Virus record (IMG/VR): IMGVR_UViG_646311924_000019
Reading direction: 5' to 3' (one strand)
From: a virus
Lineage: Duplodnaviria; Heunggongvirae; Uroviricota; Caudoviricetes
Length of the DNA: 47,189 nucleotides
The notes under the pieces are model-generated. The model did not search any database. It had not been told where the DNA came from and was given only the letters and a program-made list of their open reading frames with translations. Of this stretch, positions 27,086 through 27,203 are shown piece after piece. Numbering within the stretch: position 1 is the stretch's first letter; each line of letters begins with the position of its first letter. Made by a program: the position numbers and the translations under genes.

Positions 27086-27203
27086 TTGACAATAAGAACT
27101 GTTTTCATTTAAAAAACCAGAGCACGAAAGTATCGTTCCTTTATTTTTTCTCCATAGGTATTACCACCGCCAGCGTCCATTCCTGTCGCTGGCGGTTTTT
27201 TTT
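27086..27203 (+). ncRNA. Candidate small RNA: TTGACA promoter-like box to plus-strand intrinsic terminator, antisense to the late operon
   Basis: TTGACA at about 27086; hairpin ccgccagcg/cgctggcgg with 8 T at about 27167-27203; no ATG-initiated ORF between; terminator abuts the nanS-p stop on the opposite strand. Confidence 0.3.

Follow-up and report, generated by a model that had tools for sequence, protein, structure and literature searches.

Esr41, also named EcOnc14, is an Hfq-dependent small RNA (sRNA) encoded on the EHEC island SpLE1/OI-43. A review (PMC9387321) describes it as about 70 nt long and states that its terminator and poly(U) are needed for Hfq action. The mRNAs cirA and chuA are established as its targets, and it also affects bfr, LEE and motility; PMC5286369 reports the repression of cirA, chuA and bfr on the basis of RNase E-CLASH and reporter assays. 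In the M1 mutants described in the supplement of that study, CAUGGGG of Esr41 was changed to CAUCUCG (GGG to CUC) and CCUC of chuA to CGAG; the GGG to CUC change abolishes the repression of cirA and chuA by Esr41. The hybrids and compensatory mutants thus delimit a validated seed, UUCUCCAUGGGG, which pairs with (A)CCUCAUGGAGA(A) over the Shine-Dalgarno sequence.

A second set of sRNAs is known from the late regions of prophages. PasA and PasC of EPEC E2348/69 were found by RIL-seq and confirmed by northern analysis, and their EHEC homologues are EcOnc51 and EcOnc52, respectively (PMC8550237 Table S6). The same table places PasC on the minus strand of NC_011601 at 1290909-1290832, with the esterase stop at 1290830, and PasA at 743499-743415 of the same record, with a minor 236-nt form that extends to 743264, at the esterase stop. 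Hfq-CRAC gave peaks with terminators for EcOnc52 (Sakai Sp4, 1181998-1182075, minus strand) and for EcOnc51 (Sp12; PMC4104026 Table S2). The synteny esterase-PasA/PasC-holin-lysozyme is described in a 2026 preprint (bioRxiv 10.64898/2026.05.13.724894), which also notes frequent matches of the Esr41 covariance model near PasD and leaves them uncommented. On direct reading, the PasC, PasA and EcOnc52/51 loci each have a TTGACA promoter that points towards the esterase gene, as well as a U-run preceded by a GCCAGC/GCUGGC terminator stem. EcOnc52 abuts ECs1088, PasC ends 2 nt from the esterase stop, and PasA/EcOnc51 lie just beyond. A third group, AsxR and AgvB (RF02703/RF02702), comprises RNAs of 51-60 nt with a common 42-nt 3' region that sponge host sRNAs.

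The cassette analyzed here occupies positions 27086-27203 of a 47,189-nt stretch of Caudoviricetes DNA (IMG/VR record IMGVR_UViG_646311924_000019; hereafter the window). It belongs to the late part of a lambdoid prophage of Stx-phage-like type, whose late genes run on the minus strand. On one side, the cassette is flanked by the gene of a sialic-acid esterase of 645 aa (27205-29142, minus strand; DUF1737, SASA and DUF6645 in Pfam, with RefSeq annotation at identical loci), which is convergent with the cassette and has a TerB protein upstream. On the other side, a gene for a 59-aa DUF1378 protein (26888-27067, minus strand; Pfam) is followed on the same strand by DUF826, a P21-type holin and lysozyme (Pfam). 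Consequently, the cassette lies between the esterase and the holin/lysozyme genes and is oriented towards the esterase. At gathering thresholds, Rfam returned nothing at the cassette site and, elsewhere in the window, an STnc100-family RNA (29280-29452, minus strand), three tRNAs, sok, DicF and an IS3-type frameshift element. A side observation concerns 30140-32556 (plus strand), where three consecutive ORFs (141, 116 and 537 aa) lie between the tRNAs and the TerB gene, the site of the stx/moron genes in Stx phages; their layout may reflect an insertion sequence.

The cassette begins with a perfect -35 hexamer, TTGACA, at 27086-27091 (plus strand), and TTGAC(A/T) is invariant across all prophage copies and the esr41 promoter. 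The best -10 candidate is TAAAAA at 27110-27115 (plus strand), with an 18-nt spacer and 4 of 6 matches; it has no T at its last position and aligns without gaps with TATATA of the esr41 promoter. The predicted sRNA would cover 27119-27203 (plus strand), with a start at 27119-27121, a 3' end inside the U-tract and a length of about 83-85 nt. Transfer of the Esr41 5' end (GAUGC..., from an expression construct given in the supplement of PMC5286369) through the ungapped promoter alignment places the start at about 27121, for an RNA of about 83 nt. A putative, weakly supported 5' mini-hairpin, ACGAAAGU (27124-27131, plus strand), has a GAAA tetraloop and a C-G closing pair. CGAAAG is nearly invariant among prophage copies, and the stem has only 2-3 pairs here because a C stands in place of the U that pairs in the 933W-type copy. 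A U-rich single strand then leads to the octamer TTCTCCAT (27148-27155, plus strand; RNA UUCUCCAU), the proposed anti-Shine-Dalgarno seed. Between this seed and the terminator, the short hairpin GGUAUUACC (27157-27165, plus strand) matches GGGGUAUUCCC of Esr41, and its G-C pairs are kept in 23 of 24 variants without covariation. The sequences diagnostic of the cassette are CCAUAGGUAU(U/C)ACC and the loop GUCCAUUCCUGUC.

The 3' end is an intrinsic terminator and likely the Hfq-binding end of the molecule (27167-27203, plus strand). Its arms, CCGCCAGCG (27167-27175) and CGCTGGCGG (27187-27195), form 9 bp with 8 G-C pairs around an 11-nt loop and are followed by exactly 8 T (27196-27203) and then by A27204. 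The reading of these letters made from sequence only, before any comparison, had proposed a TTGACA box some 80 nt before a hairpin with an 8-T tail, with no ORF between the two, and these elements stand: 75 nt separate the box from the base at which the stem starts, the ORF list holds no frame of at least 30 aa in 27092-27203, and by eye there is no ATG, GTG or TTG on the plus strand between the -35 and 27203. The hairpin was also correctly said to abut the esterase stop, which reads TCA on the plus strand (27205-27207; TGA on the coding strand) and begins one base past the T-run. When read on the minus strand, the hairpin leads into UGGUAAUACCUAUGG (also read as UGGUAAUACC), without a U-run, so that it is a one-way terminator for plus-strand transcription, as had been claimed, and a terminator role on the minus strand is ruled out. 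Note that homopolymers differ in length among near-identical copies (window 27110-27116 and 27196-27203; loci L369-L448): the A-run of the -10 region holds 5-7 A, which alters the -35/-10 spacing, and the terminator T-run holds 6-9 T. These differences might alter promoter strength from copy to copy.

Both the terminator and the fold exceed chance expectation. A search of both strands of the 47 kb for perfect stems of 8 bp or longer with a tail of 6 or more T yielded only three sites (7420-7445 on the plus strand, the cassette terminator on the plus strand, and 43233-43269 on the minus strand), against a mean of 0.01 in shuffled sequence. The 85-nt RNA folds at -24.9 kcal/mol (z = -4.7), and 0 of 200 shuffles were equally stable. 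The promoter arrangement TTGACA-N15-19-TAAAAA occurs twice in the window, against 0.04 expected. A sigma-70 promoter rule made no call at the cassette; this silence is weak evidence, since the promoters of two experimentally detected RNAs, Esr41 and PasC, escape the rule as well. The cassette therefore displays several features of a stand-alone Hfq-type sRNA gene (no ORF, an intrinsic terminator and a conserved single-stranded seed), and of the promoter that such a gene should own it has a perfect -35 and a non-canonical -10; the doubt that the sequence-only reading had voiced about the -10 element was justified.

Given that the terminator is the strongest feature and the -10 is weak, one could argue that the hairpin does nothing but block stray plus-strand transcription into the esterase gene, the TTGACA being incidental. 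We find this very improbable. Variants that are 73-80% identical, and esr41 with them, jointly conserve the -35, its spacing, the -10 region and the body, and there is nothing upstream on the plus strand to terminate, as every neighbouring gene is encoded on the opposite strand. The same joint conservation of all parts excludes a chance origin of the cassette. Within the terminator, the outer 7 pairs (CCGCCAG/CUGGCGG) are invariant among variants, an invariance partly built in by a retrieval pattern that demanded this stem. RNAalifold found 0 compensatory pairs; the single varying pair, the eighth, was spotted by eye: this copy has C-G, whereas variant f8 has U-A and both f17 and f26 have U-G. 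The pattern TTCTCCAT..CCGCCRG proved unspecific on viral contigs, where most of its matches were due to chance.

On sequence comparison, the cassette is a diverged homologue of Esr41 and not any of the named sRNAs. When Rfam was searched in E-value mode (4227 families), the only meaningful match was that of the Esr41 family (RF02676) to 27127-27203 (plus strand), with 30.9 bits (E 8.8e-4). The gathering threshold of RF02676 (102 bits), which admits only near-identical copies, is not reached by the cassette, and Sakai esr41 itself scores 108.6 bits. We built a reciprocal covariance model, R1, from 15 prophage variants with Esr41 left out; it matched the window at 27117-27203 with 101 bits, and its best match outside the family was the Sakai esr41 locus (27.2 bits, E 4e-4, with 82 kb searched). 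Furthermore, the promoters of the cassette and esr41, which lie outside the Rfam model, align without gaps at 22 of 33 positions (author's count), with an identical -35 and a common AACT.TTTT in the spacer. Finally, the octamer TTCTCCAT is invariant in Esr41 and in 8 of 8 variants derived by BLAST, a retrieval free of motif bias (73% identical on average), as well as in all Esr41-like copies at loci anchored on DUF1378, and UUCUCCAU represents the first 8 nt of the validated Esr41 seed. The extension of the promoter alignment past the Rfam model, the reciprocal detection and the invariant seed core establish real homology to Esr41. The comparison with published sRNAs that the sequence-only reading had suggested thus yields a homologue, Esr41, and no named sRNA identical to the cassette.

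The two RNAs share their general architecture. Both have a TTGACA promoter with a spacing of about 18 nt and an A/T-rich -10, both belong to the same length class (74 nt for Esr41 and about 84 nt predicted for the cassette RNA), and both present, in the same order, a 5' hairpin, a U-rich single strand with UUCUCCAU, a short GG..CC hairpin and a CCGCC.GC/GC.GGCG terminator with U7-8. The GC-rich 3' hairpin and long poly(U) that form the Hfq-binding module of Esr41 are therefore present in the cassette. They differ in the 5' hairpin, which is a GAAA tetraloop hairpin in the cassette and GAUGC/GCAUC in Esr41, and in genomic setting, a prophage late region beside an esterase gene in one case and SpLE1/OI-43 in the other. 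Positions 27156-27186 also differ from Esr41, although the same stretch does not separate the two Sakai prophage copies.

A further difference lies just 3' of the octamer. UUCUCCAU is kept at 27148-27155 and is followed by AGG in the cassette rather than by the GGGG of Esr41; the three Gs whose mutation inactivates Esr41 are only partly kept. The target set should consequently overlap that of Esr41 without matching it, and a regulon that overlaps the Esr41 regulon without being identical to it is probable from the pairing sequences. Sister variants read CAUGGG, CAUUGG and CAUGAA where this copy reads CAUAGG, and specificity may drift just beyond the common octamer. Duplex predictions at the validated sites placed this copy between the wild type and the inactive M1 mutant of Esr41: at the chuA site, the values were -20.2 for wild-type Esr41, -14.1 for this copy and -10.6 for M1, and at the cirA site they were -26.4, -21.3 and -14.7, respectively. 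With a longer cirA target window, 0 of 300 seed shuffles of this copy paired as well. The test on bfr duplexes was uninformative even with Esr41 itself, and whole-length predictions gave long duplexes without meaning and were set aside.

We therefore favor, with a probability of roughly two in three, the reading that a lambdoid (Stx-type) prophage carries in its late region a self-contained gene for an sRNA, diverged from and paralogous to Esr41, that would be Hfq-dependent, act in trans and pair with Shine-Dalgarno sequences. This is the kind of Hfq-bound EHEC prophage sRNA that the sequence-only reading had in mind, and Esr41 homology and synteny support it. The step to a trans-acting, Hfq-dependent, anti-Shine-Dalgarno sRNA is the most likely one given homology and in silico pairing, from which we also infer the transcription of this copy, its Hfq binding and its targets. 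In the proposed mechanism, host RNA polymerase in a lysogen would start at about 27119-27121 from the perfect -35 and the A-rich -10 and would terminate at the U8 behind the hairpin, a single base ahead of the esterase stop, releasing an RNA of about 83-85 nt. Hfq would be bound by the U-tail and the U-rich stretch of this candidate RNA, and the single-stranded UUCUCCAU would pair with host mRNAs at Shine-Dalgarno regions of the AUGGAGA(A) type and repress their translation.

The orientation of the cassette suggests another role. A convergent promoter and RNA could act mainly in cis and hinder leaky or late transcription that runs from the esterase gene into DUF1378-holin-lysozyme, either by polymerase collision or by pairing with an intergenic stretch of the late mRNA, to which the RNA is perfectly complementary, with cleavage as the outcome, and could in this way adjust when lysis occurs or keep the lysis genes of a lysogen silent. 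The RNA would be fully complementary to the late transcript from the esterase stop to about 50 nt upstream of the DUF1378 start, only 19 nt separate the -35 from the start codon of DUF1378, which is encoded on the other strand, convergent orientation is kept by every cassette type found at this site, and RIL-seq recovered chimeras between PasA and the 3' ends of esterase mRNAs from neighbouring genes (PMC8550237 supplement). Set against these observations, the candidate RNA covers no ribosome-binding site or coding sequence, an invariant octamer amid variable flanks is not needed for such a role, Esr41, with the same seed, acts on host mRNAs from the unrelated SpLE1 locus (PMC5286369), and the cassette bodies found at this site are entirely different while the neighbours are constant. 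We thus regard a main role in cis, by either route, as unlikely. The antisense RNA proposed in the sequence-only reading stands in orientation and in its complementarity to an intergenic stretch of late mRNA; it overlaps no coding sequence, however, and its relatives act in trans by means of a short seed.

The location invites comparison with PasC (EPEC E2348/69 PP5) and EcOnc52 (Sakai Sp4). The cassette shares with them the slot, the orientation, a perfect TTGACA, an A-rich -10, a terminator U-tract within about 2 nt of the esterase stop or overlapping it, a size of about 60-80 nt and a GCCAGC/GCUGGC terminator. In contrast, body and seed are unrelated, and the PasC/EcOnc52 loci have no DUF1378 gene. 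With PasA (EPEC PP2) and EcOnc51 (Sakai Sp12), the cassette shares the esterase-to-holin region and the direction it faces, and, as proposed here, Hfq dependence; PasA is however about 150 nt further from the esterase and unrelated in sequence, and its seed is reported to overlap the terminator stem, unlike that of the cassette. R1 scored 16.0 bits against PasC (E 0.14) and 14-14.5 bits against the esterase-adjacent cassettes of Sp4 (EcOnc52), Sp12 and PP2 (E 0.14-0.38 overall), and what the cassette has in common with the Pas loci on alignment is limited to the -35, the core of the terminator and the flank on the esterase side. At R1 scores of only 14-16 bits, no common descent of the RNA with PasC/EcOnc52 is detectable. 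Identity with PasA or PasC, a family defined by blastn with the E2348/69 genes, was rejected for want of sequence similarity in both the R1 scores (14-16 bits) and the alignment. Based on these comparisons, the cassette is best filed as a previously unannotated, putative sRNA gene of a diverged Esr41 kind in the PasC/EcOnc52 slot.

This slot accommodates still other bodies. Among 80 viral loci anchored on DUF1378, 73 carry an Esr41-like body and 7 carry another body on the same scaffold. In loci L400, L402, L391, L427 and L448 (minus strand, upstream of the DUF1378 match), the alternative body reads TTGACATGATTTACTTATTTTTGTAGAAAAT... and ends in a long-loop terminator, CCGCCAGCA..TGCTGGCGG, with a T-run. 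Rfam gave no match to this body at E up to 1, and it may represent an undescribed sRNA type. Taken jointly, these patterns raise the possibility, which we put forward tentatively, that the junction is an exchange slot for sRNA cassettes through which Stx1 and Stx2 phages spread an Esr41-type regulator. The shared scaffold would be a TTGACA promoter that faces the late operon together with a GCCAGC-type terminator at the esterase stop, and at least four bodies would be interchangeable on it: PasA, PasC/EcOnc52, the Esr41 type and the further type without an Rfam match.

Other named sRNAs of lambdoid late regions lie on the other side of the esterase gene. AsxR and AgvB resemble the cassette in being short, Hfq-binding and convergent with the lambdoid late operon, but they are located between the moron (stx) and the esterase, and their size class, 3' region and sponge function are unlike those found or proposed for the cassette. 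Rfam found no AsxR or AgvB match in 26700-27500 at E up to 10, and AsxR was recovered at its expected Sakai Sp5 site, on the other side of the esterase. Identity of the cassette with AsxR, AgvB or Esr055/STnc100 was rejected, since those RNAs are upstream of the esterase. In the window, the esterase gene is directly preceded by the STnc100-family RNA (104.7 bits), in the position that PasD, Esr055 and EcOnc27/42 hold in other prophages, and no AsxR/AgvB-like convergent partner adjoins it at E up to 1. The Esr41-model matches near PasD in the preprint (10.64898/2026.05.13.724894) plausibly correspond to the cassette studied here.

A second convergent sRNA-like cassette occupies 7372-7452 (plus strand) in the tail-gene region; its terminator (TCCCGCAG/CTGCGGGA and T7, 7420-7452) abuts the stop of a 226-aa ORF (7458-8138, minus strand). 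It shares 84% identity with a region of EPEC E2348/69 in which PasB is flanked by a tail assembly gene and gpJ, and is probably a PasB homologue. At 43233-43269 (minus strand), a 14-bp perfect palindrome (ATACCCATGGGTAT...) with T6 lies between plus-strand ORFs of the early/immunity region. In Sakai Sp5 and Sp15, R1 also matched weakly downstream of Q (19.1 bits, E 0.03; 40-105 on the plus strand of locus L002 and 6578-6643 on the minus strand of locus L368), between Q and the tRNAs/stx, at the position of the tR'/StxS RNA. This match has the GCCAGC..GCUGGC stem and U-run in common with the esterase-slot cassettes, a likeness that may merely reflect a common terminator type.

The 176 nt around the cassette were found in 729 of 5426 complete E. 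coli genomes, at a median of 2 places per genome, and in 305 phage records, mostly of Stx1- or Stx2-converting phages; the annotation under these matches consisted of the two flanking CDS only. The copy in Sakai Sp15 (NC_002695.2 2922080-2922166, plus strand) is identical and that in Sp5 near-identical. The Sp5 copy (NC_002695.2 1272086-1272172, minus strand; locus L002 5587-5673) is a 933W-type variant with GAGUACG and GGUAUCACC. As the VT2-Sakai record (NC_000902.1 24607-24782) matches the window over 176 nt at 100%, the phage record and the Sakai chromosome seem to differ at the Sp5 cassette.

We found no name, annotation or description of the cassette in the literature and annotation searched, and a full-text literature search with its sequence returned no paper. 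The cassette has no entry at its Sp5 or Sp15 sites among the 63 orphan Hfq sites of Tree et al. (PMC4104026 Table S2). That table admitted a site only if it was antisense to a CDS or if its distance from any CDS exceeded 100 bp. In Sakai the intergenic region measures 137 nt and the RNA overlaps no CDS, so that the cassette would have been filtered out and its absence is weak evidence. Among the reads listed in the portion of the RNase E-CLASH supplement considered, none comes from the cassette, and the sRNA table given there covers annotated EcOnc RNAs only.

This lack of published detection bears on the possibility that the locus is a decaying relic of a working Esr41-type cassette, poorly transcribed or silent and carried passively with the esterase-lysis module. 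Such a history would agree with a -10 (TAAAAA) without its final T, which P13803, PhiR5_2 and esr41 have one base on, with the U-to-C change that breaks a 5' hairpin pair found in the 933W-type copy, and with the variable lengths of the -10 A-run and the terminator T-run. Other observations speak against decay. The exact variant is the commonest in the viral-contig sample (38 copies, both T-run lengths pooled), no copy has lost the perfect -35, the seed or any of the terminator, and Esr41 and PasC, which have been detected, have promoters that are just as non-canonical. We accordingly hold a relic to be quite doubtful. Should this copy be silent, it would be an ordinary relic.

Esr41 has so far been treated as a single-copy, island-specific EHEC regulator of iron transport, colicin sensitivity, LEE and motility. 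If the prophage copies are expressed, Stx-converting and related phages carry and spread Esr41-type regulators, and O157 Sakai has three paralogues (esr41 and the copies in Sp5 and Sp15) with seeds that diverge past a common octamer. Published phenotypes of esr41 deletions may then understate the role of the family, and, if the exchange-slot reading is true, the Sp5 and Sp15 copies could mask or modify the phenotypes of esr41 single mutants. Expressed copies would also constitute a natural series of seed variants (CAUAGG, CAUGGG, CAUUGG and CAUGAA) in which to follow the drift of targets on mobile elements.
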